From: an uncultured Candidatus Saccharibacteria bacterium
GTDB taxonomy: Bacteria > Patescibacteriota > Saccharimonadia > CAZBQI01
Length of the DNA: 49,776 bases
Direction of reading: 5' to 3'
Assembly: GCA_964494105.1 (NCBI GenBank)
Contig: CAZBQI010000006.1
Coordinates: forward strand, 1-49,776
Part shown: positions 1,253 to 49,194 of the stretch, piece after piece
How positions within the stretch are numbered: the first letter of the stretch is position 1
How the letters are laid out: each line of letters starts with the position of its first letter
Made by a program: the position numbers and the translations under genes
Notes under the pieces: model-generated
Told to the model about the DNA's origin: nothing
Seen by the model: the letters and a program-made list of their open reading frames with translations, nothing else
Database searches by the model: none

Positions 1253-2698
1253 TTATTCTCCCCACTTAAAAGTTTTATCACTTCCGTTTCGGCGTCTTAA
1301 TAGCGATCCAATGCCAAGTGGAAAACCAGCTACTGCCATTCCGGCTAATGGAATGCTCTCGGATGCTTCCTGTGCAACAGCTGCCGGTACGCTATTTGGC
1401 GTACTTTCTGCAGGTTGTGCAGGTGCTACAGGTGCGATTTCTACTACAACATCTTCGCCAATCGGCACAGTTGTGGTAGGCAATGGTTCGGGTTCTTTGT
1501 CTGTTGTAGTCGGAGCTTCTGATGTAGAGGTAGTGGTTGGTAGCGATGTGGGCACTTTGTCAGTGGTGGTAGTTGTAGGTGCCTCTGTTGTAGAAGTAGT
1601 TGAGCTAGATGTGGTACTAGAAGGTGCGGATGTCGAGGTAGTTGAGCTAGATGTAGTACTAGAAGTTGTTGAACTAGATGTAGTACTGCTAGATGTTGTG
1701 GAACTCGATGTAGTACTTGAGCTAGATGTTGTTGGAGCTTCGGTTGTCGTAGTTGGTGCCTCAGTAGTAGTTACAACGACTACAGGGGTATCCGGACTGC
1801 GCCTAACAACTGGTGCAACATCTTGTTCGTTGCCACATACGCCTTTTAGCTCTATTGTTCGTAGCTCACCATTTTCAGAGATTTCAAGTGGAATATTTGA
1901 TGCATCGACTATTACCCATTCCCTATCACCATCCACGCCAAATGACAACACTCTGTAAGTATTGCCAGATACGTGCTCCCACTCGCCATCCTCCCAGGCA
2001 AAGCCCATAAATTCGGTACCGGCAGGAATTACATTTACAGTGTGTCCAGCGATAATGCCGTTTTCGTCTTGGAAGCTGTTAAGCAATAGGTGGTCTTGCT
2101 CGCTACTATATAGGCTCATGTGGCGTATAAAGCGCAAAGCTGAGTTAGGGTTATTTGCGTTTATGCCAGGAAATATTGCGTCATAAAATTCTTGATTATC
2201 TATTAGTATGTTGTTCACGCGGTCAATTGCTAAATTCGGATTATCCACGAAATGCTGAACAACTTCTTGCTTAGTTACTACCGGTCGCTCAGGAAAATGC
2301 TCGGTGCTCCAGCTAGCTTGGGCAGCAGTTAATGGGGTTGCTCCGGCTGTGTTTAAATCACCATCACCGCTAATCAGTACGTTTGCTGGCAATTGCGCTC
2401 CGTTTATAGTTTCGGCAAACAGATCGGCTGTAGCTACATCACGACCAGCCAAAGGATTAGCTTCGGCAGAATTCATGTTGCCAACTCCACGATTAAAAAG
2501 CGTCAGCGTTGCAACAGATGCTACCGCCAACGGTGCTATAACTGCTCGTCCTAATGTTCCTTGTCTTTTGTTTAAGCCAAACTCACCCGTTTCGGCTAAG
2601 TGATCCAAATAGGTATCAAGCCCGCTGAAAGCGGCCGACATTGCTTCGCTAGTTTGAGGCGTCATCACCTCTGCTGGTAATCCCAATCGAATCTCCAT
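1253..2698 (-). CDS. Putative surface-anchored protein with Ser/Thr-rich mucin-like linker
   Basis: 481-aa ORF with hydrophobic segment near aa 50-68, long TTSSSTT region, C-terminal IPLAG + TM + RRR; own promoter upstream. Confidence 0.7.
   Translation of the reverse strand: MEIRLGLPAEVMTPQTSEAMSAAFSGLDTYLDHLAETGEFGLNKRQGTLGRAVIAPLAVASVATLTLFNRGVGNMNSAEANPLAGRDVATADLFAETINGAQLPANVLISGDGDLNTAGATPLTAAQASWSTEHFPERPVVTKQEVVQHFVDNPNLAIDRVNNILIDNQEFYDAIFPGINANNPNSALRFIRHMSLYSSEQDHLLLNSFQDENGIIAGHTVNVIPAGTEFMGFAWEDGEWEHVSGNTYRVLSFGVDGDREWVIVDASNIPLEISENGELRTIELKGVCGNEQDVAPVVRRSPDTPVVVVTTTEAPTTTTEAPTTSSSSTTSSSTTSSSTTSSSTTSSTTSSSTTSTSAPSSTTSSSTTSTTEAPTTTTTDKVPTSLPTTTSTSEAPTTTDKEPEPLPTTTVPIGEDVVVEIAPVAPAQPAESTPNSVPAAVAQEASESIPLAGMAVAGFPLGIGSLLRRRNGSDKTFKWGE
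1565..1775. repeat. Imperfect intragenic tandem repeats encoding the Ser/Thr tract
   Basis: Units like GA(G/A)CT(A/C)GATGT start at 1602, 1644, 1671, 1701 and 1719. Confidence 0.8.
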
Positions 2699-4151: not shown

Positions 4152-4417
4152 TTAAATCTCCTTTGTAGCCAAAAGAGCAAAGCTTCCAGCTGGGACGAAA
4201 ACTTCTATTTAGATTATTCTCATTCGCTACAGGAATCTGCGGAACTCTGCGCCTAAGGCGCTATCAAACAGTCCTCGATTCTTGTTGTTCATTCAAATAA
4301 TCTAGATCGGTTTTCTTTATAGCTGGAGACGTTCATTAATTTATTCCCCGAATATAAAGGAGCTGCAAGTGACGTCCTATTCGGGTACTTTTGTTTCTTT
4401 TGGTTACAAAAGTAATT
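4152..4417 (+). repeat. Modular palindromic interspersed repeat (MITE/REPIN-like), copy 1
   Basis: Hairpin-shaped imperfect terminal inverted repeats; 4264-4329 is identical over 66 nt to 48900-48965; 4227-4247 is identical to 48865-48885; CCCGAATA...TATTCGGG module shared with the copy near 35.98 kb. Confidence 0.9.
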
Positions 4418-4482
4418 GAAAAGAAAGCTATCCAATCAAAAGATAGCGAATTATAAAATTTGGCTGACAAAATATTTAATAA

Positions 4483-5757
4483 TTAGCGCCAAATAGTCGC
4501 CAGGGTATCGTTTAGCTCATTCGCCTGCTTTTCATCGATATCTCCAACAAGGCTTAAGCCCCAACATGGCTTGGCAAAAATTCGCTTAATGGCCCGGGCT
4601 AAATCGCTGACTGTAATCTTTTCGATCATGGCAATTGATTCGTAGAAGTCATTTACTCTGCTCCTGGTAAGATAATCATATAAGTACCAGTTCACTAGGT
4701 TGCCAGGGGTTTTATGCTGACGCAATCTCCGTCCGATTAGTAAGTTTTTGGCCTCTTTGACTTCGGTTTCAGTAAACTCACCCTTTACCGCTAGTGCCAT
4801 TTTGTCGGCAATCAATTTAAACAAATCCGGCGTATTGCTTGGGGTGGCGTTATACATAACCGAAAACGAACTGTAGTGAATGCCCGTATCGGCACCCGAA
4901 TTCACAAAATACGCTAAACCACGATCACGAGCTTCACCCAAAATCCAAGACTTGTATCGGCCGGTTAGAATAATGCCTAGTATTTCTAGAGCGGGATCGT
5001 CTGACAGCGGTAAAGTTGGTCCGTACTGCGTAAATTGGTAGTAAAGCTGTGGAATGTCCTTATGAATAAGCAGTGGCTTAGACTGATGCTTGGGAGTTTC
5101 CTTGACTATGGGGATGTGGCGACCAGCTTTGAGCTTGCTTAGTTGATCGTTCAAAGTGTCGAAGTACTTGCGATTTTCTTTGATTGCACCGGCAAATATG
5201 AATTTTAGGTTTCTGGCCGTGTGTGTTTTGTGATAGTAATCTAAAATTTTATCGCGGGTAATCCCATCAAGTGAAGCCAAGCCATCATCGGTAGTATGTC
5301 TCCCAAGTGTTGCGCTGGCAATTTGATCGTAAGCCACTCGCGAATAATTAGTCAGATTTCGGTTTAGTTCTTCGCGCACGTTGCCCATTTCGGCGGTTAT
5401 TTCAATCGGCTTAAAGGCCGGTGTGGTTATCTCGGTTGTCAGTAGCTCCAAGATTCGATCGAACTCAAAGCTAGCACATTCCATTTCATACCCAAGGAAA
5501 AACTGAGACGTAAAGGCATTGTTGGCTGCCCCATTCTTTTCGATTTCAGCCTCGAAATCTTTCATTGTAGGAAATTTCGCATTAGCCCCCACCACCGTAT
5601 GTTCCATAAGGTGCGGAAGCTCACTAAGCCCAGGTTCGGCACACATATAGCCAGCGTTAAAACCCGCCACCAAATTTACAACTGTACTGCCGGGAACATC
5701 AAGCAGAAGTACTTTTGAGCCATTTACGAGCTCGATTTCCTCGTGACTATGCTTCAC
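4483..5757 (-). CDS. M16 family (pitrilysin-like) zinc metallopeptidase
   Basis: Inverted zincin HLMEH, NNAFTS motif, LILTG...R.RGLAYFV C-terminal half. Confidence 0.92.
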   Translation of the reverse strand: MKHSHEEIELVNGSKVLLLDVPGSTVVNLVAGFNAGYMCAEPGLSELPHLMEHTVVGANAKFPTMKDFEAEIEKNGAANNAFTSQFFLGYEMECASFEFDRILELLTTEITTPAFKPIEITAEMGNVREELNRNLTNYSRVAYDQIASATLGRHTTDDGLASLDGITRDKILDYYHKTHTARNLKFIFAGAIKENRKYFDTLNDQLSKLKAGRHIPIVKETPKHQSKPLLIHKDIPQLYYQFTQYGPTLPLSDDPALEILGIILTGRYKSWILGEARDRGLAYFVNSGADTGIHYSSFSVMYNATPSNTPDLFKLIADKMALAVKGEFTETEVKEAKNLLIGRRLRQHKTPGNLVNWYLYDYLTRSRVNDFYESIAMIEKITVSDLARAIKRIFAKPCWGLSLVGDIDEKQANELNDTLATIWR

Positions 5758-8410
5758 TAGGTTCGCCCAGTTTCTTTACGCGCTCTTGGTGTTCTTTGGA
5801 GTTGATTAAGCCACACTTTTTAAACTTACTACCGGAACCACAAGGACATGGGTCATTTCTACCAACTTTTATTTTTTTGTCTCTACCGTCAGATTTTACT
5901 GACTCACGACTTATGGTTATTCCCCCACTCTCAGAGGGCCCCTCGACGAGTGCGTTTTGGGCAGCAGTCGTTAGCTCGGTTGGAACTATGGCCGAATCAG
6001 GTAATTGCACCGGCGCCATACGCAGGATATTTGTGGCAACTTCATGATCTATCGATGCGTTTAATATATTAAATAAATTAAATGCTTCTTTTTTATATTC
6101 GACCAGTGGATCGCGCTGTCCAATCGCCCGCAAGCGAATTCCTTCGCGTAGGTGCTCCATGGTTTCAAGATGCTCCATCCAAAGCCTATCAACGCTTTGC
6201 AAATAAGCTACCCGCTCCATGTCACGAACCATCTCGGTGCCATAAGCCTTCTCTCGATCTCTATAGATTTGCTCGATTTCTTTATGTAGTAGCCCTGGGA
6301 TCTCCTCAACTTTCTTTTCTTTTAGCCCCTTTACGAGCTTGGCATTTAACGGCATGAAGGTGCCAATAATTTCAAACGCTTTATCGTAATCAAGTTCGTC
6401 GGTAGTCTGATTGATGTTGGCATCGATAATTCCATCTACCTCTCGCTTGATCATACTTTTTACTTCTTCGGCCAAATTTCCGCGCTTAAGCACCTTGCGT
6501 CGGCGAGAATAAATCGATTCTCGGTGTCGATTCATAACGTCGTCGTACTGCAGAACTTGTTTGCGGATATCGAAGTTGTGTGATTCGACTCGTTTCTGTG
6601 CGCTTTCTAGCGCTTTAGATACAAAGCGATTTTCGATTGGCGTATCTTCGTCTACTCTCAATGTATTCATTAAGCTGGCAATTTTATCGCCACCGAATAC
6701 CCGCATTAAATCGTCGTCTAAGCTCACATAGAATTGCGTACAACCCGGGTCTCCCTGACGCCCGGCACGCCCGCGTAGCTGATTGTCTATCCGGCGAGCC
6801 TCATGACGTTCCGAACCGATTACTTTGAGACCACCTACTTTGGTTACGTCTTTACCCAATACGATATCGGTTCCGCGACCAGCGATATTGGTTGCTAAAG
6901 TCACAGCCCCTTTTTGGCCTGCTCGAGCGATAATCGCAGCTTCTGATTCGTTGTTTTTGGCATTTAAAATTTCATGAGGCACTTTTAGTTTCTTTAAAAT
7001 ACCTGACAGCAACTCGTTTTTTTCAATCGATACCGTGCCAATAAGAACCGGCTGGCCTTTACTATGGCTTTCCTTAACATCTTCGGCGATTGCACGATAT
7101 TTCGCTTCGTTGGTTTTATAGATTCTGTCGGCGCGATCTTCACGAATCATTGGCTGATTAGTAGGTATTACTACCACCTCAAGGTCATAGACCGTGTCAA
7201 ACTCTTCACTTTCGGTTTCGGCTGTTCCGGTCATACCCGCTAGTTTGTCGTAAAGTCGAAAGTAGTTCTGGAAACTAATCGTCGCTAGTGTCTGAGACTC
7301 TTGCAACACCTCTACTTTTTCTTTGGCTTCAATTGCCTGATGAAGACCTTCGGAATAGCGACGCCCGGGCAGTAATCTGCCGGTAAACTCGTCAACTATA
7401 ATTACCTCGCCACCGCGCACAACGTAGTCTTTGTCTTTTTTGAATAACGCTTCTGCGCGTAAGGATTGCTCAATGTGGTAAATCATCTGTATATGGTCGC
7501 TGTCGTAGAGATTATCTACTCCAAGAATTTTTTCGATTTTTTCTACGCCCTTGTCGGTTAAGGTCGCGGCGTTTGCCTTTTTATCAACTGCGTAATCGTC
7601 TTCTTCCTTTAGTTGTTTCGCAACGGCAGAGTATTGATTATAGTTTGTAGCATTTTCACTAGCCGGAGCCGAAATAATCAGAGGCGTTCTAGCTTCATCA
7701 ATTAATATCGAATCAACTTCGTCAACAATAGCGAAGTTAAGTGGTCGCTGAACGTATTCCTCGAAACTAGGCGCCATATTGTCGCGAAGATAATCGAAGC
7801 CGAATTCATTGTTTGTCCCATAAGTAATGTCCGCCTGGTAGGCTTCGCGCTTGTCTACCGGCCGCAAATGCATCAAACGCTCATCATCGTGCTCCGGACT
7901 GGTATAGCTTGGGTCGTAGAGCAGAGCTCGATTACCACCAACTATTACTCCTACACTTAAGCCCAAGAAATGGTAAATCTGAGCCATCCAACCGGCGTCA
8001 CGTTGAGCTAAATAGTCGTTAACTGTAATAACATGCACCCCTTTGCCGGTTAGTCCGTTTAGGTATACCGGCAGAGTTGCCATTAATGTCTTACCCTCAC
8101 CGGTCTTGAGTTCGGCTATGTTACCTTCGTGCAAGACAATTCCTCCCAGAAGCTGAACATCAAAATGGCGTTGGTTTAGCACGCGCCTTCCGGCTTCGCG
8201 AGCCGTGGCGAAGGCCTCCGGTAAAATATCGTCGATTCTTTTGCCTTTTTCTAATTGTTTTTTCAGCTTTGTGGTTTGTTTTTTCAGGTCAGCATCGCTC
8301 AGCTTTTTTAAGCGTGATTCATGGGAATTAATACTCTCAATTGTGGGTTTTAGTTTCTTTACTTTCTTGACACTTGGATCGCCAAGTAGTTTTCCTAGAA
8401 GTTTTTTCAT
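5747..8410 (-). CDS. secA: Preprotein translocase ATPase SecA
   Basis: ELKTGEGKTL, VDEVDSILIDEARTPLIIS, GRGTDI, QLRGRAGRQGDPG, C-terminal GRNDPCPCGSG. Confidence 0.99.
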   Translation of the reverse strand: MKKLLGKLLGDPSVKKVKKLKPTIESINSHESRLKKLSDADLKKQTTKLKKQLEKGKRIDDILPEAFATAREAGRRVLNQRHFDVQLLGGIVLHEGNIAELKTGEGKTLMATLPVYLNGLTGKGVHVITVNDYLAQRDAGWMAQIYHFLGLSVGVIVGGNRALLYDPSYTSPEHDDERLMHLRPVDKREAYQADITYGTNNEFGFDYLRDNMAPSFEEYVQRPLNFAIVDEVDSILIDEARTPLIISAPASENATNYNQYSAVAKQLKEEDDYAVDKKANAATLTDKGVEKIEKILGVDNLYDSDHIQMIYHIEQSLRAEALFKKDKDYVVRGGEVIIVDEFTGRLLPGRRYSEGLHQAIEAKEKVEVLQESQTLATISFQNYFRLYDKLAGMTGTAETESEEFDTVYDLEVVVIPTNQPMIREDRADRIYKTNEAKYRAIAEDVKESHSKGQPVLIGTVSIEKNELLSGILKKLKVPHEILNAKNNESEAAIIARAGQKGAVTLATNIAGRGTDIVLGKDVTKVGGLKVIGSERHEARRIDNQLRGRAGRQGDPGCTQFYVSLDDDLMRVFGGDKIASLMNTLRVDEDTPIENRFVSKALESAQKRVESHNFDIRKQVLQYDDVMNRHRESIYSRRRKVLKRGNLAEEVKSMIKREVDGIIDANINQTTDELDYDKAFEIIGTFMPLNAKLVKGLKEKKVEEIPGLLHKEIEQIYRDREKAYGTEMVRDMERVAYLQSVDRLWMEHLETMEHLREGIRLRAIGQRDPLVEYKKEAFNLFNILNASIDHEVATNILRMAPVQLPDSAIVPTELTTAAQNALVEGPSESGGITISRESVKSDGRDKKIKVGRNDPCPCGSGSKFKKCGLINSKEHQERVKKLGEPSEA

Positions 8411-12279: not shown

Positions 12280-14229
12280 CTAACGCCCGGCACCTGAATG
12301 GAAATACCAGCTCATAGTTTTGGCGATAGCCGGTGCTGCGTACTGCGAGCCTCCCTCGCCTTCTTCGAGTAAAACGCAGAAAGTTATTTTCGGATCATCA
12401 AATGGCGCAAAGGCAGTGTACCAAGCATGGGGTTTCTTTTTAGCACCGGGGTCGGTTTCGGCCGTACCACTTTTCCCTGCTACCGGCACCGGGACACCTG
12501 CAAATGTCGATACCGGTGTCGTTCCACCGATTACTTGTTTCATGCCTTCTCGAGCTATCTGCATATTGTATGGATCGATTTTTAAAGTAGACAGCGTTTT
12601 TGGTTGCTGGCTTTCTGGGGCATCAGCCGCTTTTGCAAAAACGTGTGGCTGGAGTATTTTGCCGCCATTCAAAAGCGAGGCCGTACTAACCGTCATTTGG
12701 AGTGGAGATGTAAGTAAGTCGCCCTGACCAATAGAGATGTTATATGTGTCACCAGTGGTCCAGTCTCGATTGTGTGTTGCCTTAAGCCAATCAGGGCTAG
12801 GCACCCGGCCATTAGTTTCGCCCGGCAAATCAATGCCGGTTAATTTACCTAAGCCAAACTTTCGGTACCAATCTGTAAGCTTTGTAACGCCTAGACCCTT
12901 GAAGTTCTTGTAGCCACCGCCAACCGTATAAAAATATATATCCGAACTCATAGCGACGGCTCGCCGTGCATTCATTGGCCCAAGGCCGTTCGGGTTCCAA
13001 CCGTTAAAAACATACTGTATGGATGGATCATAAACGTTTGGCACTACTAACTTACCATTGTCGACAATGGTAGTGTTTTCGTTCACTACGCCCTCTTGTA
13101 GCGCGGCCGACACATGCATTGGCTTTATAATTGAGCCGCTCGGATAGCTACCGCTAATGGCTTTGTTTTCAAGAGGCGAGAGCTTATCGCTGACTAACGA
13201 GGCATACTCGGCTTCACTAATACCGCTATTAAAAAGATTGTTGTCGTAACTCGGCAAGCTTACCATGGCGAGCACTTCCCCGGTTCGCGGGTCCATGGCG
13301 ACTCCGGAAGCTTTTTTAGCACCGGCATTCTTCATTTGTTCTTTCATGGCTGCCTCGAATTGCTGTTGTAAGCCGTAATCTATATTGAGAACAATGTCGC
13401 GCCCGGCTTGGGTTGCCTGCTGATTTAGTGTGCGTATAGGCTTACCAGTCGCATCGACCTCGGTGCGAACCAAGCCGTTTCGGCCACGCAGAATTACGTC
13501 GTACTGAGCCTCTATGCCATCCTTCCCTACAAAATCTACCGGTAATAGCTCGGGGCGGTTTTTCAATTCCGCCTCTCCAACTCTACTTACATAACCAAGT
13601 ATTTGCGCTAGCCCAGGCTTGTATTGTCGCGTTGGCACTTCGTCAAGGCTAAACCCCCTTAGTTCGGGTATATCTTGCTCAATAATAAGTGCCGCTTGGT
13701 AGTCTAGATGATCTTTAATTAGCAACGGCTGAGTATAATCGGATCCTTTAACCTCGGCCTTTGCTTTTATATCCTCAATAGATGTGGACAACAATTTGCT
13801 TATTTGGGCATAGGCGTCATCGCGTTTCGTTTTGTCTTTTGGCAATAGGTATGGTGTAACAGAAAGTTGAAAAGTTGCCGTGTTAGTAGCCAATTCTACG
13901 CCGTGTCTATCTAGTATTCTACCCCGTTGCGCATAACTCACACGCTCACGAACTCGGTTTCCTTCTGCCAGTCCTTGGTATCGCGAACTATTTACGATTT
14001 GCAGATTAAACAACTGGTAGCTAACCATAAAGAAAAACAATGCGAACACCGCCACTACTATTCCAAGTGGTCGGTGATTTAGGTCTTCTTCTACTTTCGC
14101 TCCTCTATGCCCAGCCGGTAGGAGATTTTCGTTCCATGCTTTTCCAGAATCGCTCTTTCGTAGTATTCCCGCACTGCGACCTTTCGGTATTTCAACTGAT
14201 GATATGCTAAATTTGTTGCTTTTACTCAT
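12280..14229 (-). CDS. mrdA: Penicillin-binding protein 2 (class B transpeptidase)
   Basis: RGRILDRHG, SxxK (SIIK), SxD (SSD), KSG (AGKSGTAE), HAWYTAFAP; follows mreBCD. Confidence 0.95.
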   Translation of the reverse strand: MSKSNKFSISSVEIPKGRSAGILRKSDSGKAWNENLLPAGHRGAKVEEDLNHRPLGIVVAVFALFFFMVSYQLFNLQIVNSSRYQGLAEGNRVRERVSYAQRGRILDRHGVELATNTATFQLSVTPYLLPKDKTKRDDAYAQISKLLSTSIEDIKAKAEVKGSDYTQPLLIKDHLDYQAALIIEQDIPELRGFSLDEVPTRQYKPGLAQILGYVSRVGEAELKNRPELLPVDFVGKDGIEAQYDVILRGRNGLVRTEVDATGKPIRTLNQQATQAGRDIVLNIDYGLQQQFEAAMKEQMKNAGAKKASGVAMDPRTGEVLAMVSLPSYDNNLFNSGISEAEYASLVSDKLSPLENKAISGSYPSGSIIKPMHVSAALQEGVVNENTTIVDNGKLVVPNVYDPSIQYVFNGWNPNGLGPMNARRAVAMSSDIYFYTVGGGYKNFKGLGVTKLTDWYRKFGLGKLTGIDLPGETNGRVPSPDWLKATHNRDWTTGDTYNISIGQGDLLTSPLQMTVSTASLLNGGKILQPHVFAKAADAPESQQPKTLSTLKIDPYNMQIAREGMKQVIGGTTPVSTFAGVPVPVAGKSGTAETDPGAKKKPHAWYTAFAPFDDPKITFCVLLEEGEGGSQYAAPAIAKTMSWYFHSGAGR

Positions 14230-28068: not shown

Positions 28069-28181
28069 TATGTAATCCTTTCGGCTTGGGTGACAAGCTT
28101 GCTTCACTTACTTGCATCTAAATAAATAGACAGAATCACTAAGTAAGCTGTTTAATTGTTGCTTGGTGATATTTTAACAGA

Positions 28182-28298
28182 TCACAACAGCGCCAACAAG
28201 CCCACGCCGATTAAAGCTACCTTACCAAGATGCTTAGCAACACGCTTACTTTTTTCGCCAAAAGTCTCTGGCTTAGGAGCATTTTCACCGATGCTCAT
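28182..28298 (-). CDS. Putative small membrane-anchored protein (38 aa)
   Basis: Hand-translated MSIGENAPKPETFGEKSKRVAKHLGKVALIGVGLLALL; below the ORF-track size cut-off. Confidence 0.4.
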   Translation of the reverse strand: MSIGENAPKPETFGEKSKRVAKHLGKVALIGVGLLALL

Positions 28299-28301
28299 CG
28301 G

Positions 28302-28361
28302 TTACGCCCTATCCGCATACGGTTCGACATCTATACTGGCCATAAGTTGTTGTATGTTCAT
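28302..28361 (-). CDS. Putative small ORF (19 aa)
   Basis: Hand-translated MNIQQLMASIDVEPYADRA; extended -10 TGaTACAAT at 28379-28371 ends 9 nt before the ATG. Confidence 0.3.
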   Translation of the reverse strand: MNIQQLMASIDVEPYADRA

Positions 28362-28431
28362 TCTTTGTATATTGTATCAACTTAGCAACTTCTCCGGTTT
28401 TCGCTATCACTAAAGAATATCCCCTCATATA

Positions 28432-28460
28432 TTGACCAATTAACAGATATGCGTTAAAGT
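28432..28460 (+). promoter_or_regulatory. sigma70-type promoter for rpmE-prfA (near-leaderless)
   Basis: TTGACC, 17 bp, TAAAGT; ATG 9 nt after the -10. Confidence 0.65.
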
Positions 28461-28469
28461 TATATTCTT

Positions 28470-28820
28470 ATGAAGAAAGAGCTTCACCCTGAATATATGA
28501 AAACTGTTGTTAAGTGCAACGGCTGCAACAACACTTTTGAAACCGGCTCGACTGTACCCGAAATTACGGTAGAGATTTGCTCTAATTGTCACCCGTTTTA
28601 CACCGGTAAACAAAAACTTGTCGATGTGGCAGGACGTGTAGACCGCTTTAAGGCCCAGCAAGCAGCTGCTACCAAAAAACAAGCTGCCAAAAAAGCTGTT
28701 AAGAAACCGGTTGAAGCAGAGGCCAAAGCCGAGGAGCCAAAAGACCCAACGGCAGATCTTAAAGACTTAAAGAAACAACTAGAACAGCAAAAAAGTACTA
28801 CAGCCCAACCAAAGCAATAA
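28470..28820 (+). CDS. rpmE: 50S ribosomal protein L31 (Zn-binding form, long Ala/Lys tail)
   Basis: [30 protein letters not shown]. Confidence 0.98.
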
Positions 28821-35924: not shown

Positions 35925-36060
35925 TTAGACCTCCTTTGTTGCCGAAGGAGCAAAACTCTCGAAGAGAATTTAATTTATTTCCCCGAATATTAAGGAGCGA
36001 TTAAGCGACGTCCAATTCGGGAGCTTTTGTTACTTTTGGCTACAAAAGTAATTTAATAAA
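35925..36060 (+). repeat. Modular palindromic interspersed repeat, copy 2 (minimal form)
   Basis: Same left hairpin family (CTCCTTTG-TTGC-CGAAGGAG), CCCGAAT...ATTCGGG module, and a right end matching copy 3 at all but one base over ~38 nt. Confidence 0.88.
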
Positions 36061-39181: not shown

Positions 39182-42100
39182 TTAAGTCGATTTTAGCGAT
39201 TCAAATACCTGTTCCCAATATTTCTCGTAAGCATTTCGAGTCCTGAACCTATTTTCACCTACAGTTGCCAATACATCGGCAGTATTCAACGCCCTCAAGA
39301 TTCGCAGGACTCTGGCATTATTTCCTAATCGAGAAGCTAATTCGCTAGGTTGCAAATCCTGGTTTGCACCGCCTTTTCCTCTTGTAATATCTGATACTAT
39401 GCCATCGTGTAAAATGGCTGCGGTAACTACCTGGATGTCTTCTTCGCTGAATCCCCATTCAGTCATTCGTTGGCGCGCAATATCAGCACTTGGCACATCG
39501 TGTGAACGATCTCTAGGGACTTTTTCATCTTGACGCCCAGTAGGTTTCCCAAAATCGTGGAAGAAAGTTGCTAATACTGCTAGCCGTCTGTCTGGCTTGT
39601 CTAGTGCTTCGTACTCTGGCAAAGATTTTAATATTTGTACTGCCTCTTTTATATGATTACCAAGTAAAACTCCATTGTGCTGATATCCTTCCTCGCTCGT
39701 TAGATTTTTCCAACCAGGAACTATATCTTTCAGCTCATCTGCATCTGCTCCTTCTTCAATCAATGTAACTGCCTGTCTACCTCTATCTGTAAGCTCCCCT
39801 GTATTTGAAGTTAATTCTGGATTAGATGAATTTGTTTCGGGCGCACTTGATACTACTGCTTCGAGCTCGCCAGTTAATTTAGTTGACGTTGATTCACTAA
39901 AGCCAGCCGCCCAATCAATTATGTAGTCACGTCTAGCTTTTAGTATTCGTTTCAGCAAGGCTCTATCGGCTAGTGGCAGGCGTACACTATCAACCTTTTC
40001 ATCTATTACATCGTCAGTTAGTTTTTCCTTCATTATTTTTGCTTGCGCTTTTATATCAGCCTCAGTTAGACCAGGGTACATCTGTCTCATGCCAAGACCC
40101 AAGCGCTTTTTATCAACGCCAAATTGCACTTCACCGACTACCTCGCTAAATAGTTCTTTACGCCCACCTTGAGCTCGATATAGCAAACCTCCTCCAGCAT
40201 CAACTCGCACTGTTTTACCGTCCACAACCATGGTATTTGCTTCGTTATATACGGCGTCCCAGTTAGCCAACAATGCGTCCATTAAAAAGCCGTCTTTGAT
40301 GTCTGGGGCCGCGCCCGGTACAGCTTCTTCAATAATTTCTGACGCATGCCCATACGAACCATCCACCCACACAACCTGAGTCTTAGGGACGGCCAGCCCT
40401 CCTGCTTCATATAAAAGGTTACCTAGGTGCTCATTCCATATCTGATCTGTAGAATCCAGCCGTTCAAATTTTACGTAATATTTTACCGGCCCATCAACAG
40501 TCGGCACGGTAAACGTACCCCCTTCGTTACTACCCGCCTTCTCGCCTGTTTTTAAGGAATAGTCCCAAACAGCTACCGAGACAGATAAGTTAAGGTCGGC
40601 GCGTGCAGCATCGTACTCTTCGGGCGTAAATATTAGTTCGCCCTGAATGTCATATATTGGTATATAAATTCCATTTTCTAGCACTACTTCTTTGGCCTGA
40701 GCCAAAGTAACATCCTTATCGCGCAATACTATGCCACTTATTTCAGTAGCTGGCATACCACCAAACATTAGGCTGTGGTGGGTAGACCTACCCTTTACAT
40801 GGTTCTGATCTGGCTGCCAGCTTGATTGTTCTCGGTCATACAGTAAATATATTCCAGAACCTTCTGTGACACCTCGACCCGTATAACCACCCGAAAGACT
40901 ACCATCTAATTGTTCTTGTACGGTTTGCCCCTTGGCTAAGAAGTCCGATTCTAGCAAGGTGAAGTCCACGTGGAAAGGATAGCTGTCGTTACTCGCAGAT
41001 TCACCCAATGCTTCACCCGGCAAATTACCGTTAAGGAGAACTAGTTCTAGGAAATCATTACTTGAACCGTGTACCCATTGTCCCGGCCTTAACTCTAGCT
41101 TATCCCGCACTAGAGCACGATTACGCTCGTCGGCGGCAGATTTACTGGTTTCATCACGACTTGTTTCGATGGTTTCTGCTAACCAGTACGCGAATAACAG
41201 TTTTTTCTGCATGCCGTTTAGCTGAGTTAGGGGCAGTTCTGTGAGGCTTTCAACTTCTGCGTCGCTCATGTCCTCTAGGTTGGCAACTCGACGTTTTTCA
41301 TCTACCGAGAGACTCGTAAAGGGAACTGTAGCAAACTCAAAATCATCAGCAAAGTTTTCGACGTTGTTGCCCTCGGGGGTTTGGATTCTTACAATTTCCG
41401 TTACCCGATAGTCACTTTGGGCTTGGGCTAACTGTGAACCCAGCCTGGTTTCTGCAAATAAAAATCTCTGCTTCCAGCTCGGCACAGCCTTTGTGAAAAT
41501 GGCTGTGATTTCGGCAATTCTAGCTTCTACATTGCCGTTGCCGAATATATCTGCAATAATTTTCTCTCTATTTGAGAATAAAGGCGCACCCGGCTCTAAT
41601 AGACCAAGAAAGTCTTCGTTGGCAAAAATCCTTTTAAAGCTTTCGATTTCTGATGGCCTCAGTACTATGCGCTCTAAAATTTGCGTGCTAATATTCGATC
41701 TTCTAAAAGCAGCCCCAAAGCCGTTCTTGGAGTTTTTACCTAATAACTCATTGACTTCTACTATGGCTGCCGCCGATGCTTCGATTTGTTCCGCATTAAC
41801 CTCTGCCCCAAGATTTAATCTAACTATGTGGGCAACGGCAGCAGCATATCTAGGGACAACAGATGGCTTGGTATCTAATAATTTTCCTAGGGATTCCTGC
41901 CATGATGCCCTGTGCATACTAGCCCAAACCAGCATTGGCTCATAAATATATTGTCCGCTCGTTTCTTCTCTGAAAGGAAGATAGTTAATGTAACCATTCT
42001 CTTCTAGTATTGTCTCCAGTTCAGAGAGTATTCGTTCTCGATCACCTTCCATCTCATAAAGCTGCTCTAGCGCCTTGGGGTCAAAAGAGAAATTATATTG

Positions 42101-44965
42101 TCTAAGCTCTTGTACAAACTGCACAACTTCCGGACGCTGGCTGAGCACTCGCATGACATCAATGTCTTCAACTTTAAACCCATAAAAACCCTCACTGACC
42201 TTAATAACAGCATCGATAATGTCTGGATTATCAGCTAACGCTTTAAGCAAGTCGAAGTTGCCACCGGCATCTCCACCAAATCGTTCGAACATTCGTGATT
42301 TGCTTTCTACAAACTGCTGGTACACCGAATACATAGCCTTAAGGTCGTATTTATTATCAACAATTTTACTAAGCGCATTTAGTGATTCTTCAAATTGCTC
42401 ATTATCCTGATTAAGGTTTGAAAAGAATTTATATGCATCTGCCCGAATTTTTTCTTGCACTTTTTCTGGTAAATACCCGAAGTTATCAATCAAGCCTATT
42501 AGAAGTTCTTGGTTACCATAGTATGAATCGACATGGGCCATTCCCAATAATTCACTTGCGTATTCCACGTTGCTAACTGCAACGTTCATCATTTCGCTTC
42601 GGATGTCATCGATACCAAAGAGCTCAGCTAGTTTTAAGGCATCTGGTAGGTGGCCTATATCGAGTGCAGCCTCAACCGCTAATAGCTGAGTGTAGTTATC
42701 TACCTTGAATTCCCCGTTGCGCAGAATCTCATTAAGCGTATCTTCGAAGCGTGGGCTACTACTAGCTAGTTCCTTTAGACTTTCAATGGTGAACTGTCGT
42801 GCTAAAGCCTCATTGAGCTCGGCCTCTGTTAGACCAAGGGTTCTTATTATATTCTCAGGATCACCCGCTTGTGCGTTTTTTAGTTCAATTACGTGCGACG
42901 CCATAATCGCCCGATATAGAGACTCGTCAACTGGTAAAAGTTCGGCAAAAGCCAGCGCTTCTTCAGAACTTCTGCGACTTAGTAATTCACGTACACCGGC
43001 AGCATATATGCGTCTGCATTGCTCTAATGCGTCCTCATGACTATCAGCATTTTCAACAATCCGAAAAGACGCAACTATTAAGGAATTTACCTGGTGTTCA
43101 TGCTCACCGTACCGAAGTGTTCTGCTTGGTAGAATTGACTCCATGAGCGAGAGTAATTTCACCGTATCCTCTGCTTCAAGCAGCTGTCTGGCTACAACCT
43201 CTAGCTCAATTCGGTAATGATAATCGCTAAAGAATGTCTCTACCTTGCGCTGGCCCAAAGCAATAGCGATATTTACAAGTAACTGATCAGCCTGATCAAT
43301 CTCTTTAATTTCGCTAGCAACGTATGCTCCTTTTAGTTGATCTAGAATAGCTTCACTAAGATCATCGTAGCCGAGCTCATGTGCCAGCACCAAAGATCTT
43401 GACGCTTCGGCAATTCTTCTTGCCGGGTATGAGCCTTGTCTCTCTAGAATAGAATGTGTTCCAGATAATATGATACTGCCCACATCAACATCGAATTCTT
43501 GAAGTTGCTTGGCTACTCGATTCAATACCGTCTCGCTAGTATATGTATCCACATTAATGAGCGCATCAATTAGTAGCTCAATGTCTTTCAGATCTGGCGT
43601 TTTATTACCTGCCTTTGCCTGCTCAATGGCTTCATTGGTCCTTTTGCGCAAAACATCTTCCATTACTGCCTTAATTTCATAAGAGTCAATTTCTGACTGC
43701 GTAAGCGTTTCTATAGCACCATGCAAATTCCCTTCACCTATTTGATGATCCGCAATTTTTTTAACTAATCTTGCACGCGCATACTGGCTGTCAGCCGATG
43801 AACGACCAAGCATTCCTATGGCTTTTTCCGTTTGACCTAGCTCAAACATATCGACGCCAAAGTCCGAGCTATCATATGTGGATTCTCCAAATTCAGCCCC
43901 AACCTGTTCTTCTAATTTCTCAATGACAATATCTAACCCAGAACGATCGCCAAGGTCTTTTAAGTGATGTGCGATTTGTTTTAGCTCAAAAATTCTCCAT
44001 CTACCCTCAATTAGTAGCGCTGCATCCATGGCCTCATGCAATGAAGATATGGCTTTATCTTTATCATTTAACTCATCGAATTTACGCGAGGCTGATCGCA
44101 ATACATCACATTGAGCGTCAGCAACACCATGCTCCTTAATAAATGCAACAGCCGTTTCCGTAAGTAATCTTGCCTTATCAGCATTACCTTTTTCTATCTC
44201 GAAATCAGCTATGTCAATCAAATTGCGAGCATAAAGCGAGCTTAAGATGTCGCGCTCCTGTGCTGTTAATTCTGTGCTTAATTGCGTGCCAACAGAGTCT
44301 TCAACATCCTGAAGCAACTCTTGTTCGTCCATATTTCCAGCAATTACACTTAAGTCAACATATAATTGTGACCTAGGATTTTCCTCTGACTCCTCTACTA
44401 AATGATCGTCTAGTGCTTTTAACATGCTCCTAACCGTCGCTGGCTGGAGGTCAACTTGATACATTATAATTTCTTTGGTTGTAGGGTCGGCAGTTTGCAA
44501 TAAGGCTGCTGCTTTTTTGCTTGCCTCGATTGCTTTTCCTTGCTCTGCCAGACCGTTTATTTCAGCTGCTTTCTCAACTACTTCATCTAGTATTCTTTGC
44601 TTTTCTTGTCGCTTTGCAATTACTGTTGCTTTAGCTTCACTAATTTCTTCTTTACTAAATCTATCGCCCCACCCAAGTTCTTTTCTTACATCAGGGTCGT
44701 CATCGGCAAGGTCATCAATAGGTGCAACTATTGATTCATCGCTATCAGCGCCACTTACAGCACCTCCAACAGCGACATCTCCAACCCCAACTTCTACTTC
44801 ACTAAGCAAAGCAGTATCATCGCGATCTATGACATCACCAGTTATTCCCTCAACTGCTCCTGTCGGGGGAATATCGGCTACTGATCCATCAATTTTGGCT
44901 GGATCACTTGCAGCTACGTCTGCGTCGCCGTAAGTTACATCTTCGTCTATTGGTGAAAAGGGCAT
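39182..44965 (-). CDS. 1927-aa multidomain protein: acidic N-terminus, TPR-like helices, ART-like domain, HipA/CtkA/PI3K-like kinase, HD domain
   Basis: WVHGSS...LVLLNGNLP; GSNEGG...YYVK...NE...DALLANWD...N...RVDAGG; HNG...NH...HDFGKP...H...H; uninterrupted ORF. Confidence 0.7.
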   Translation of the reverse strand: MPFSPIDEDVTYGDADVAASDPAKIDGSVADIPPTGAVEGITGDVIDRDDTALLSEVEVGVGDVAVGGAVSGADSDESIVAPIDDLADDDPDVRKELGWGDRFSKEEISEAKATVIAKRQEKQRILDEVVEKAAEINGLAEQGKAIEASKKAAALLQTADPTTKEIIMYQVDLQPATVRSMLKALDDHLVEESEENPRSQLYVDLSVIAGNMDEQELLQDVEDSVGTQLSTELTAQERDILSSLYARNLIDIADFEIEKGNADKARLLTETAVAFIKEHGVADAQCDVLRSASRKFDELNDKDKAISSLHEAMDAALLIEGRWRIFELKQIAHHLKDLGDRSGLDIVIEKLEEQVGAEFGESTYDSSDFGVDMFELGQTEKAIGMLGRSSADSQYARARLVKKIADHQIGEGNLHGAIETLTQSEIDSYEIKAVMEDVLRKRTNEAIEQAKAGNKTPDLKDIELLIDALINVDTYTSETVLNRVAKQLQEFDVDVGSIILSGTHSILERQGSYPARRIAEASRSLVLAHELGYDDLSEAILDQLKGAYVASEIKEIDQADQLLVNIAIALGQRKVETFFSDYHYRIELEVVARQLLEAEDTVKLLSLMESILPSRTLRYGEHEHQVNSLIVASFRIVENADSHEDALEQCRRIYAAGVRELLSRRSSEEALAFAELLPVDESLYRAIMASHVIELKNAQAGDPENIIRTLGLTEAELNEALARQFTIESLKELASSSPRFEDTLNEILRNGEFKVDNYTQLLAVEAALDIGHLPDALKLAELFGIDDIRSEMMNVAVSNVEYASELLGMAHVDSYYGNQELLIGLIDNFGYLPEKVQEKIRADAYKFFSNLNQDNEQFEESLNALSKIVDNKYDLKAMYSVYQQFVESKSRMFERFGGDAGGNFDLLKALADNPDIIDAVIKVSEGFYGFKVEDIDVMRVLSQRPEVVQFVQELRQYNFSFDPKALEQLYEMEGDRERILSELETILEENGYINYLPFREETSGQYIYEPMLVWASMHRASWQESLGKLLDTKPSVVPRYAAAVAHIVRLNLGAEVNAEQIEASAAAIVEVNELLGKNSKNGFGAAFRRSNISTQILERIVLRPSEIESFKRIFANEDFLGLLEPGAPLFSNREKIIADIFGNGNVEARIAEITAIFTKAVPSWKQRFLFAETRLGSQLAQAQSDYRVTEIVRIQTPEGNNVENFADDFEFATVPFTSLSVDEKRRVANLEDMSDAEVESLTELPLTQLNGMQKKLLFAYWLAETIETSRDETSKSAADERNRALVRDKLELRPGQWVHGSSNDFLELVLLNGNLPGEALGESASNDSYPFHVDFTLLESDFLAKGQTVQEQLDGSLSGGYTGRGVTEGSGIYLLYDREQSSWQPDQNHVKGRSTHHSLMFGGMPATEISGIVLRDKDVTLAQAKEVVLENGIYIPIYDIQGELIFTPEEYDAARADLNLSVSVAVWDYSLKTGEKAGSNEGGTFTVPTVDGPVKYYVKFERLDSTDQIWNEHLGNLLYEAGGLAVPKTQVVWVDGSYGHASEIIEEAVPGAAPDIKDGFLMDALLANWDAVYNEANTMVVDGKTVRVDAGGGLLYRAQGGRKELFSEVVGEVQFGVDKKRLGLGMRQMYPGLTEADIKAQAKIMKEKLTDDVIDEKVDSVRLPLADRALLKRILKARRDYIIDWAAGFSESTSTKLTGELEAVVSSAPETNSSNPELTSNTGELTDRGRQAVTLIEEGADADELKDIVPGWKNLTSEEGYQHNGVLLGNHIKEAVQILKSLPEYEALDKPDRRLAVLATFFHDFGKPTGRQDEKVPRDRSHDVPSADIARQRMTEWGFSEEDIQVVTAAILHDGIVSDITRGKGGANQDLQPSELASRLGNNARVLRILRALNTADVLATVGENRFRTRNAYEKYWEQVFESLKST

Positions 44966-48689: not shown

Positions 48690-48698
48690 ATTGTAACA
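48690..48698 (-). promoter_or_regulatory. Extended -10 promoter for rplU (leaderless-type)
   Basis: TGtTACAAT ends 8 nt before the ATG. Confidence 0.6.
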
Positions 48699-48788
48699 CA
48701 TCAGAGGTTATCGGCAACTTTTAATGGCAAGAAATTTCTATTTCTTCTCTGCCCTTACTTCTGTAGGCAAAAGTATCAATGATTTTTA

Positions 48789-49158
48789 TTAAATCTACTT
48801 TATAACCAAAGTAGCCAAAGTTTCCAGCTAGGACGAAAACTCTATCTACATTAGCAATCATTCACTACAGGAATCTGCGGAACTCCTCACATGCGCTCGT
48901 CAAACAGTCCTCGATTCTTGTTGTTCATTCAAATAATCTAGATCGGTTTTCTTTATAGCTGGAGAATAATTAGTTAAATCCGAGTATTGGAGAATGCAGA
49001 GGGAAGAGGGTTTAATTTTAGCGAATGAAGCTGAGGACTGTGTGATGCGCCTTAGGCGCAGAGTTCCGCAAGCTCGTTAAAATTAAACCATTGACCATCT
49101 GTAATTCGACCTACTCGGTCGCTTTTGTTACTTTTGGCGACAAAAGTAATTTAATAAA
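48789..49158 (+). repeat. Modular palindromic interspersed repeat, copy 3 (longest, two REP-like cores in opposite orientation)
   Basis: Module 48823-48963 matches copy 1; an inverted core near 49033-49070 lies inside a 16-bp stem (49009-49024/49075-49090); shared right-end hairpin. Confidence 0.9.
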
Positions 49159-49194
49159 GAGAATTTGCTGACAAAAGTAGTTTTAGAAAAGAAA

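Follow-up and report, generated by a model that had tools for sequence, protein, structure and literature searches.

Three palindromic elements in a 49,776-nucleotide (nt) stretch of DNA from an uncultured Candidatus Saccharibacteria bacterium (contig CAZBQI010000006.1, positions 1 to 49,776; hereafter the window) very probably belong to a mobile, structured and non-autonomous repeat family. Each element (copy 1, 4152-4417; copy 2, 35925-36060; copy 3, 48789-49158) is a head-to-head doublet of a single modular unit with its terminal hairpins facing outward. On balance, we lean towards explaining them as non-autonomous mobile doublets for which a folded single strand would be the form moved in trans.

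Anatomy of the window copies

A first-pass annotation of this DNA had described three related palindromic elements, and all three are present as it proposed. Each is intergenic, flanked by an M16 peptidase gene and murD (copy 1), by a signal peptidase gene and parB (copy 2), or by a DUF6580 gene and rplU (copy 3). A repeat finder placed the right ends in one three-copy family (D1, 60 nt, 70–85% identity) and bore out the internal likenesses that the annotation had listed: firstly, copies 1 and 3 have module A in common, with 66 nt identical (D3); secondly, the left and right hairpins are imperfect inverted repeats of each other (I1 and I3, 29 nt, 79–83% complementary); and thirdly, the module B loop of copy 3 holds an inverted copy of the copy 1 core (I2, 24 nt, 100% complementary, 4238-4261 versus 49047-49070). 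The left part of copy 2 is reduced to a tiny TCTC/GAGA stem (35957-35967). Three occurrences of the right-end motif TTTTGTTNCTTTTGGNNACAAAAGTAA were counted in the window, as compared to none in each of 100 dinucleotide-preserving shuffles. Fold z-scores for copies 1, 2 and 3 were -5.3, -3.4 and -5.9, with no shuffle equalling any copy, and in every fold the left end pairs with the right end.

Within each doublet, the right unit is module B together with the right hairpin, and the left unit, on the minus strand, is module A together with the left hairpin. Read on the minus strand, the module A core is GGACTGTTTGATA-hairpin-AGAGTTCC, the core of the wider family in the orientation expected for its own terminal hairpin, and the second core of copy 3 is that of a long right unit. 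The copy 1 core is the counterpart of the family core ACTG-YYTGA...GAGTTT, with a putative tandem G-A junction resembling a kink-turn (k-turn). A covariance model (R1) built solely from units of other lineages and then run on the window matched all three right ends (E 3e-7 to 6e-6); on the left unit of copy 1 it aligned ACTGTTTGA, AGTTT and the terminal hairpin. The six units are as follows.

4152..4329, minus strand: copy 1 left unit, long form (sequence, fold, R1 4158-4294 at E 0.013); outer stem TCCAGCT/AGCTGGA at 4185-4191 and 4322-4328, inner stems, core and CTTTGCTCTTTTGGCTACAAAGGAG; terminal hairpin 4158-4177; TTAA 4152-4155
4238..4277, minus strand: core of that unit, CGAGGACTGTTTGATA-GCGCC TTA GGCGC-AGAGTTCCGCA (I2 and alignment A4, described below)
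4346..4420, plus strand: copy 1 right unit, short form (nhmmer E 6e-6, R1 E 6e-6); CCCCGAATA at 4346-4354 pairs with TATTCGGG at 4378-4385, then TAC; terminal motif TTTTGTTTCTTTTGGTTACAAAAGTAA 4389-4415; TGAA 4417-4420
35925..35967, minus strand: copy 2 left unit, minimal form (weak R1 match, 35931-35996, E 0.095); terminal hairpin CTCCTTTGTTGCCGAAGGAG 35931-35950; TTAG 35925-35928
35981..36056, plus strand: copy 2 right unit, short form (nhmmer E 2e-10, R1 E 3e-7); stem CCCGAAT 35982-35988 with ATTCGGG 36015-36021; terminal motif 36025-36051; TTAA 36053-36056
48789..48965, minus strand: copy 3 left unit, long form (D3, D8, D12 and fold); outer stem TCCAGCT/AGCTGGA at 48823-48829 and 48957-48963; core 48876-48913; terminal hairpin CTACTTTATAACCAAAGTAG 48795-48814; TTAA 48789-48792
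48980..49154, plus strand: copy 3 right unit, long form (I2, fold, nhmmer E 2e-9); stem CCGAGTA 48980-48986 with TACTCGG 49112-49118; core in sense orientation 49033-49070; terminal motif 49123-49149; TTAA 49151-49154

The first-pass annotation had derived the three sizes from palindromes inserted into hairpin loops. Such insertions are not needed, as head-to-head units with a stem of variable length suffice. Moreover, because long, core-bearing units and short units (CCCGAATA...TATTCGGG) both recur in relatives, they represent propagating subfamilies rather than one-off loop insertions.

Unit architecture and folded strand

Units of the family are 40–200 nt long and have an architecture that is alike in every lineage examined. 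On the folding strand, from 5' to 3', a unit comprises an A/G-rich lead-in, a closing stem, an optional core, the sequence TTTTG(G/T)TAC, a terminal hairpin and a tail. The closing stem varies in length and drifts in sequence with its pairing kept, and ends 2–4 nt before TTTTG(G/T)TAC; the core, found in most units, reads ACTG-YYTGA-GCG..GATGA..GCG-AGTTT; the terminal hairpin has 9 base pairs, TACTTTTGG-NNN-CAAAAGTA (also written TTTTGG-NNN-CAAAAGTA); and the ~8-nt tail that follows is purine-rich, with 73–95% A or G at positions +2 to +8, and is often GGAG.

Analysis of 20 diverse units (alignment A4) with RNAalifold and pair counts revealed 25 pairs, with 96% of cells paired and compensatory changes at 11 of the pairs; slid-partner controls were 44–62% paired. 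Both sides had changed in 55 cells, as compared to 16.2 ± 3.6 in shuffles, and the covariation score was 0.35 versus 0.145, a value reached by none of 500 shuffles. The covarying pairs concentrate in the closing stem (10 of 16), whereas the terminal hairpin is invariant in eight of its nine pairs, indicating that the stem is constrained as structure and the hairpin as sequence. Compensatory change is visible within the window itself, where copies 1 and 2 have the right-unit stem CCGAATA/TATTCGG and copy 3 has CCGAGTA/TACTCGG, and the apical hairpin is GCGCC/GGCGC in the window versus CCGCC/GGCGG in a relative (locus L172; loci are numbered with an L throughout).

The structure belongs to one strand. 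In 103 of 133 units the folding strand was the more stable of the two, and it offers 541 G-U pairs versus 396; in alignment A4, ~31 cells are G-U as compared to ~6 that are A-C. The core could be drawn as a tandem G-A junction resembling a k-turn or k-loop, AAAC-UGUUU-GA-GC opposite GC-GA-GUUU, and AAUGAUGA, GAUGA and CUGA are recurring strings. Box C/D-like strings recur in L005, L058, L074, L124, L141, L162 and others: YTGA-GCGG-GATGA within the core, GATGA-N12-CTGA in class II units, and AATGATGA, which precedes the closing stem by ~10–15 nt on its upstream side.

Neighbouring units in other genomes form 13 head-to-head, 10 tandem and no tail-to-tail pairs, and head-to-head doublets like those of the window occur in L010, L011, L026, L031 and Alistipes. 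Outside the window lineage, most units are solo and asymmetric, and only 7 of 105 units across the family have a good partner hairpin upstream (at most one mismatch). The 3' modules with which the family combines differ between lineages. One subclass has a conserved GC-rich module, GCCCCGC(C/G)GGCAGGCG, directly after the terminal hairpin, at L085, L090, L094, L145, L156 and L176, and at L072, L080, L093 and L154.

Empty sites and evidence for mobility

Comparison with a relative (ParB 93% and MurD 70% identical) showed that all three window sites are empty there, the outcome sought when the first-pass annotation suggested inspecting relatives for such sites. On the relative's 122,574-nt contig, gene order is unchanged around all three sites, and the unit-end profile found no copy in 42 kb of it. 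The intergenic gaps differ as follows.

parB to signal peptidase gene: 14 nt in the relative, 167 nt in the window
DUF6580 gene to rplU: ~47 nt from stop to ATG in the relative (86 nt between called genes), 513 nt in the window
M16 gene to murD: 29 nt in the relative, 378 nt in the window

The parB site is likewise empty in L169, which is more distantly related (ParB 74%). In further relatives these sites are occupied, but by units in other arrangements: L168 has a long unit 2 nt past the parB stop codon, L172 and L173 have a doublet between M16 and murD that is flipped with respect to the window doublet, and the L174 contig starts within the hairpin. Element sequences have also crossed between loci. 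Window positions 49033-49188, beside the DUF6580 gene, are 91% identical over 158 nt to the L172 element beside M16, whereas identity between the two genomes is only 75% for M16 and 72% for murD. Units of the Gracilibacteria loci L028 and L029 are 93–96% identical as compared to 78% for the flanking genes. Some copies are orthologous between species (L034/L037 and L002/L027). Judged by these alignments, the window copies are recent insertions that arrived after the split from the relative with the 93% identical ParB.

In genomes that use genetic code 25, units are also found in frame within genes. The nth gene of L118 carries an insert of ~47 aa that is missing in six homologues; a glycosyltransferase of L020 carries an in-frame unit and its L038 homologue lacks one; and dnaX carries one in both L141 and L162. 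These in-frame copies are always in the sense orientation and in one frame (...ETFGTFGxKSTE...), with conserved TGA triplets read as glycine.

Insertion site and orientation

In the window lineage, each hairpin end is accompanied, 3–4 nt outside the hairpin, by TTAA or a variant matching it at three of four positions, and at each of the three empty sites one TTAA marks the exact point at which the flanks become homologous again; for example, an empty ...TTACT-TTAA-ATATAGG corresponds to a filled ...TTAT-TAAA-[element]-TTAA-ATATAGG. These junctions suggest insertion at TTAA in this lineage, in which the elements landed a short way downstream of stop codons. As palindromes, TTAA and TA leave it ambiguous whether the second copy is a target duplication or part of the inverted repeat, and no flanking direct repeat was seen at solo units elsewhere.

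Orientation with respect to flanking genes is approximately even (21 same, 22 opposite), and units lie between convergent, divergent and tandem genes. With respect to local GC skew it is biased: the folded strand is on the C-rich strand at 52 de-duplicated loci out of 78 versus 26 on the other (p 0.004), and at 31 of 42 loci with strong skew. All three right units of the window follow this rule.

Distribution of the family

A scan of one genome per species with the 27-nt right-end motif found it in 43 reference-genome stretches, nearly all from Gracilibacteria, Peribacteria and other Patescibacteria; one came from Magasanikiibacteriota, one from a metagenome-assembled genome labelled Gammaproteobacteria and one from the cultured Flavobacterium longum. 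At least 120 metagenome contigs, ranging in GC content from 23% to 65%, carry a slightly relaxed form of the motif. The GC-rich contigs from human gut are Alistipes, since their MnmA proteins are 85–98% identical to named Alistipes proteins. The possibility that the three window copies form a purely local family is refuted by this recurrence of hairpin and architecture in Bacteroidota as well as across Patescibacteria. Numerous copies are found at the ends of contigs, as is typical of repeats on which assembly fails. The end variant of the window lineage (...GTAATT) had no match in the JGI metagenomes. An origin in phages or plasmids was considered and rejected: searches of IMG/VR returned no match and then two for the end motif, both on host-type-looking sequence, and PLSDB returned none.

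Two further features of these loci deserve mention. Alistipes contigs contain tandem and inverted arrays of units with a period of ~450–550 nt and additional conserved GC-rich segments in each period (L070 3300-4700; also L089, L121, L125, L132, L137, L144 and L152), and one array copy stops 13 nt before an ATG. In four lineages (L030; L058/L098/L133/L155; L091; L118), nth, encoding endonuclease III, lies at most 25 nt from a unit, which could reflect chance, shared ancestry or a preferred site.

No previously described element matched. Rfam 15 gave no element match at gathering thresholds for the window and 18 loci, and nothing credible at permissive settings (E up to 10 for copy 3, up to 1 for the 18 further loci); all Rfam matches in these scans were tRNAs and an L10 leader. 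No description of the family was found in the literature, including a search by hairpin sequence and a paper on a complete Gracilibacteria genome, with ISfinder, Dfam and subscription journals outside the scope of that search. The family is large and apparently undescribed.

A proposed folded single strand moved in trans

The first-pass annotation had likened these elements to REP (repetitive extragenic palindromic), BIME or MITE (miniature inverted-repeat transposable element) sequences, and they are indeed interspersed palindromic non-coding repeats of that kind. Their behaviour lies between REP/BIME/REPIN sequences, Rickettsia palindromic elements (RPE) and bacterial MITEs that duplicate TA; they are set apart from all three by the conserved non-helical core, the covarying closing stem and the cross-phylum terminal hairpin. 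RPE are ~100–150 bp long and occur between genes and in frame within housekeeping genes, to which they add a peptide segment, and are not known to have a transposase. Compared by behaviour rather than with the sequences of RPE-1 to RPE-8, the present family is likewise palindromic with in-frame coding insertions, but its hosts are Patescibacteria and Bacteroidota, its in-frame copies rely on TGA as glycine under code 25, and its terminal hairpin and core are conserved across phyla.

In the explanation that we prefer, the elements are non-coding, non-autonomous mobile DNA. The sequence of the invariant terminal hairpin would be recognised by a protein encoded elsewhere and presumed to act in trans, and what remains of the element would behave as a folded single strand, in the way that REP/RAYT and IS200/IS605 ends do. 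More specifically, and only tentatively, a hairpin of single-stranded DNA might be handled by an HUH-type enzyme; we infer both this route and the enzyme class. As in IS200/IS605 elements and PATEs, hairpins near the element ends would be recognised as structure plus sequence and target duplication is not clear; as in IS200/IS605, insertion seems to be beside a short motif (TTAA here; TTAC or TTGAT in IS200/IS605) and orientation is biased with respect to replication or GC skew. Unlike IS200/IS605, the ends of the window copies are inverted copies of each other and no TnpA or TnpB gene was found near any copy in the loci around units.

Several observations weigh against this explanation. REP sequences normally co-evolve with their own RAYT and are lineage-specific, whereas the terminal hairpin described here is alike across phyla. 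The folded strand lies on the C-rich strand, which is the opposite of the IS608 prediction if the folded strand is the active one. A target-site duplication could account for the TTAA or TA on both sides and would point to a DDE enzyme, and the conserved k-turn-like core with its GATGA and CTGA strings consists of motifs of an RNA type. Finally, no mobilising gene emerged. Pfam scans of the 40 open reading frames (ORFs) in the window returned housekeeping domains or none, in agreement with the first-pass annotation, which had reported no transposase. Beyond the window, we examined all ORFs in 1.1 Mb around ~190 unit ends, and the clustered ORFs were all housekeeping, among them nth, glycosyltransferases, HflX, ABC transporters, MnmA and glycyl-tRNA synthetase (GlyRS). 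This search bears on linked genes; copy numbers and unlinked candidates lie beyond its 1.1 Mb. The largest ORF cluster was set aside as an artefact of wrong-frame translation of GC-rich Alistipes DNA.

For Y1 (HUH) transposases, six-frame ORFs of the same 1.1 Mb were searched by phmmer and jackhmmer, the queries being E. coli RayT and the Y1 protein of L088. The link to RAYT or IS200/IS605 transposases that the first-pass annotation had proposed looking for failed to appear, as no Y1 gene was linked to any unit end. The single Y1 gene, in L088, lies 13 kb from a unit and is flanked by a different hairpin, GTCCACCCTTGGGGTGGA, which also counts against an HUH route. This gene (Y1_Tnp, ~13071-13725, Pfam E 8e-7) is on a metagenome contig of 39% GC and has GTCCACCCTTGGGGTGGA on both sides, which is a normal RAYT/REP arrangement for another repeat. 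Nor was any multi-copy or transposase-like ORF family that might mark a parent insertion sequence (IS) found in 163 loci or the window. Since the loci were picked only by the hairpin, a hairpin-bracketed transposase should have recurred; that it did not argues against a cis-linked RAYT or parent IS.

Alternative explanations

An unlikely alternative, yet the first among those that we weighed, is that the elements are MITEs with terminal inverted repeats, that is, deletion derivatives of IS of the IS630/Tc1, IS5/IS701 or IS1380 kind, moved by DDE cut-and-paste with TA or TTAA duplicated. TA-duplicating bacterial MITEs include Correia/NEMIS, RUP and Nezha (IS630-related), and ERIC and BOX are modular repeats. 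The window copies resemble MITEs in being 135–370 nt long, AT-rich and non-coding, with ~30-nt terminal inverted repeats and TTAA, or its three-of-four variant, 3–4 nt outside the hairpin at both junctions; module length is variable, as it is in BOX, a single TTAA stands at the junction of all three empty sites, and pairs are head-to-head and never tail-to-tail. At every site, however, one tetramer is imperfect, and a self-complementary TTAA or TA is indistinguishable from an extension of the inverted repeat. Units elsewhere are mostly solo and asymmetric, with one terminal hairpin, a partner hairpin in 7 of 105 and no flanking direct repeat. No transposase ORF lies between or beside any ends in the 1.1 Mb, and no parent IS was found. 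Furthermore, a DDE mechanism needs neither strand asymmetry nor a covarying internal stem, and the family has strand-specific structure with G-U pairs and a non-helical core.

We consider it rather improbable that the elements are first of all a functional structured RNA (a k-turn protein-binding module, an element in mRNA processing or stability, or a small RNA), with spread through genomes secondary. The non-helical core, ACUG-YYUGA-GCG-GAUGA...GCG-AGUUU, is conserved and invariant across phyla within a stem that covaries, box C/D-like strings are present (GAUGA-N12-CUGA in class II units), G-U pairs mark one folded strand, coding insertions are all sense and in one frame, and a purine-rich tail, often GGAG, follows the hairpin, all of which would suit an RNA. 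An RNA would be harder to reconcile with the even orientation relative to genes and the mixture of convergent, divergent and tandem contexts, with window doublets too tight for a promoter, with a folded strand that is more often antisense to the G-rich, gene-rich strand, with the lack of any Rfam family match even at permissive settings, or with the lack of a conserved neighbouring gene. A related idea, to which we give equally little weight, is a selfish module at the level of RNA or ribonucleoprotein (RNP) that has spread across phyla with a box C/D-like k-turn or k-loop core, an invariant 3' hairpin and no linked transposase; it would propagate, for instance, through a conserved host factor or by a mechanism acting via RNA or guided by it.

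The model of the first-pass annotation, a REP or REPIN moved by a RAYT (Y1 HUH) with palindromes inserting into loops, is improbable. REP units are ~20–35 nt long and extragenic, with a conserved 5' tetranucleotide of the GTAG type. In common with REP, BIME and REPIN sequences, the family is built from short hairpin units whose stem is conserved, which often pair up as inverted doublets folding into long hairpins and form non-coding mosaic clusters in intergenic DNA near gene ends and beside stop codons, with some positions kept across species; in addition, contigs resembling those from the candidate phyla radiation (CPR) do encode Y1 transposases with REP-like flanking hairpins (L088), and whole elements stand between older degenerate hairpins. 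The family departs from REP and REPIN sequences in its units of 40–200 nt with a covarying stem and an internal core, in having TTTTG(G/T)TAC in place of a GTAG-type 5' tetranucleotide, in a hairpin kept across phyla, and in copies within genes (in frame in nth, glycosyltransferase and dnaX). The defining RAYT link fails: no Y1 gene flanked by the unit hairpin was found in the 1.1 Mb, where the more than 160 hairpin-selected loci would be expected to yield several, and the sole RAYT-like gene uses a different hairpin. Loop insertion fares no better, as long and short units are each a conserved subfamily common to several genomes and the long, core-bearing form is the general architecture of the family.

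Least probable is a signal under selection that serves the host as DNA or RNA, for instance by terminating transcription in both directions or by binding a chromosomal protein, and that would be copied through recombination and not by transposition. The window copies begin 2–70 nt past a stop codon, a T-rich tract follows the closing stem, one unit (49107-49121 plus CTTTTGTTAC) fits a terminator consensus, the hairpin is invariant across phyla and some copies are orthologous between species. Nonetheless, a terminator scan matched only one of the six window units and none in copy 2, a separate ordinary terminator stands beside copy 1, a close relative lacks all three copies with its gene order intact, units occur between divergent genes and inside ORFs, and one variant is found at different loci in different genomes. 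A 5' untranslated region (UTR) regulator or mobile promoter was rejected because orientation relative to the downstream gene is approximately even, and, for a promoter, because the Bacteroidetes -33 TTTG is missing in about half of the aligned units and a sigma-70 scan was empty inside the elements.

Outer layers and other features of the window

The inserted blocks somewhat exceed the coordinates given at the outset, with degenerate extra hairpins beside copies 3 and 1.

4427..4474: outer layer of copy 1 towards M16 (compared with L172 and window copy 3)
4427-4447, minus strand: terminator-like hairpin GCTATC...GATAGC, then a T-run, after the M16 gene
4459-4474: degenerate unit hairpin TTTGGCTGACAAAATA, in the outer layer of copy 1
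48726..48775: outer layer on the rplU side of copy 3 (R1 48755-48803, minus strand, E 0.0016), comprising hairpin GGCAAGAAAT...ATTTCTTCTCTGCC 48726-48753 and degenerate unit hairpin TTACTTCTGTAGGCAAAAGTA 48755-48775
49164..49180: outer layer of copy 3 towards DUF6580, degenerate hairpin TTTGCTGACAAAAGTAG, 15 nt from the DUF6580 stop codon

Both rplU-side outer hairpins are missing from the empty site of L167. The hairpin at 49164-49180 is the inverted partner of that at 48755-48775, with copy 3 between the two, and a matching outer hairpin directly follows the M16 stop codon in L172 and the ParB stop codon in L168. The real nesting seems to be one level further out than described by the first-pass annotation, with whole elements between older degenerate hairpins; elements that pile up beside and inside older copies produce the nested look. 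A promoter-like extended -10 site (TTGCCG-16-TACAAT, preceded by TG) lies upstream of rplU at 48690-48717 on the minus strand, and the insertions appear to have spared both flanking signals, this site and the canonical terminator after M16.

Elsewhere in the window, a weak unit-like hairpin, TTACTTTTTTCGCCAAAAGT (28246-28265, nhmmer E 0.13), lies inside a possible minus-strand ORF of ~40 aa (MSIGENAPKPETFGEKSK...) in the region 28108-28470; this 360-nt region stands in place of a 306-aa gene between the L31 and S2 genes of the relative L167 (18290-19210). The window proteins are housekeeping or unannotated, with ORFs intact under code 11, and ParB and MurD have their nearest named homologues in Candidatus Saccharimonadales (~50–55% identity); on these grounds the host is taken to be a CPR bacterium resembling Saccharimonadia. 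Four imperfect 42-nt repeats at 1589-1729 lie inside a 481-aa ORF (1253-2698, minus strand) that has no Pfam match and may encode a repeat-bearing surface protein. A 1927-aa ORF (39182-44965, minus strand) has a C-terminal HD domain as its sole Pfam match; in its place L167 has ORFs of 1258 and 395 aa, suggesting that the gene is fast-evolving or rearranged. A second, unrelated family of REP-like hairpins, CTGGATTCCTGC...GCAGGAATGAC, occurs in Gracilibacteria, at L006 310-345 and 1000-1030, just 3' of the unit in L037, L016 and L027 (often ~10 nt downstream), and in frame in the L020 glycosyltransferase (4464-5879, GIPSNDWIASQARNDR).

Significance

With genomes of ~1 Mb, CPR bacteria are believed to hold little mobile DNA. 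The presence of three elements in a 50-kb window as compared to none in 42 kb of a close relative indicates that intergenic regions of at least one CPR lineage are being actively reshaped by the family. Proteins are reshaped too in code-25 lineages, through added translated segments that annotation pipelines will misread, and, as these repeats break metagenome assemblies, they matter for the binning and finishing of CPR genomes. The range of hosts that share the terminal hairpin and core, extending from Gracilibacteria to Alistipes of the gut and a cultured Flavobacterium, is unusually broad for REP-like repeats and implies horizontal spread, a widely shared recognition protein, or both. Propagation as an RNA or RNP module, if true, would jointly explain the 20-nt hairpin in Patescibacteria and Bacteroidota, the single structured strand and the lack of an adjacent transposase. 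Because cultured hosts carry the element, both a mobilising activity and a role as RNA are directly testable.

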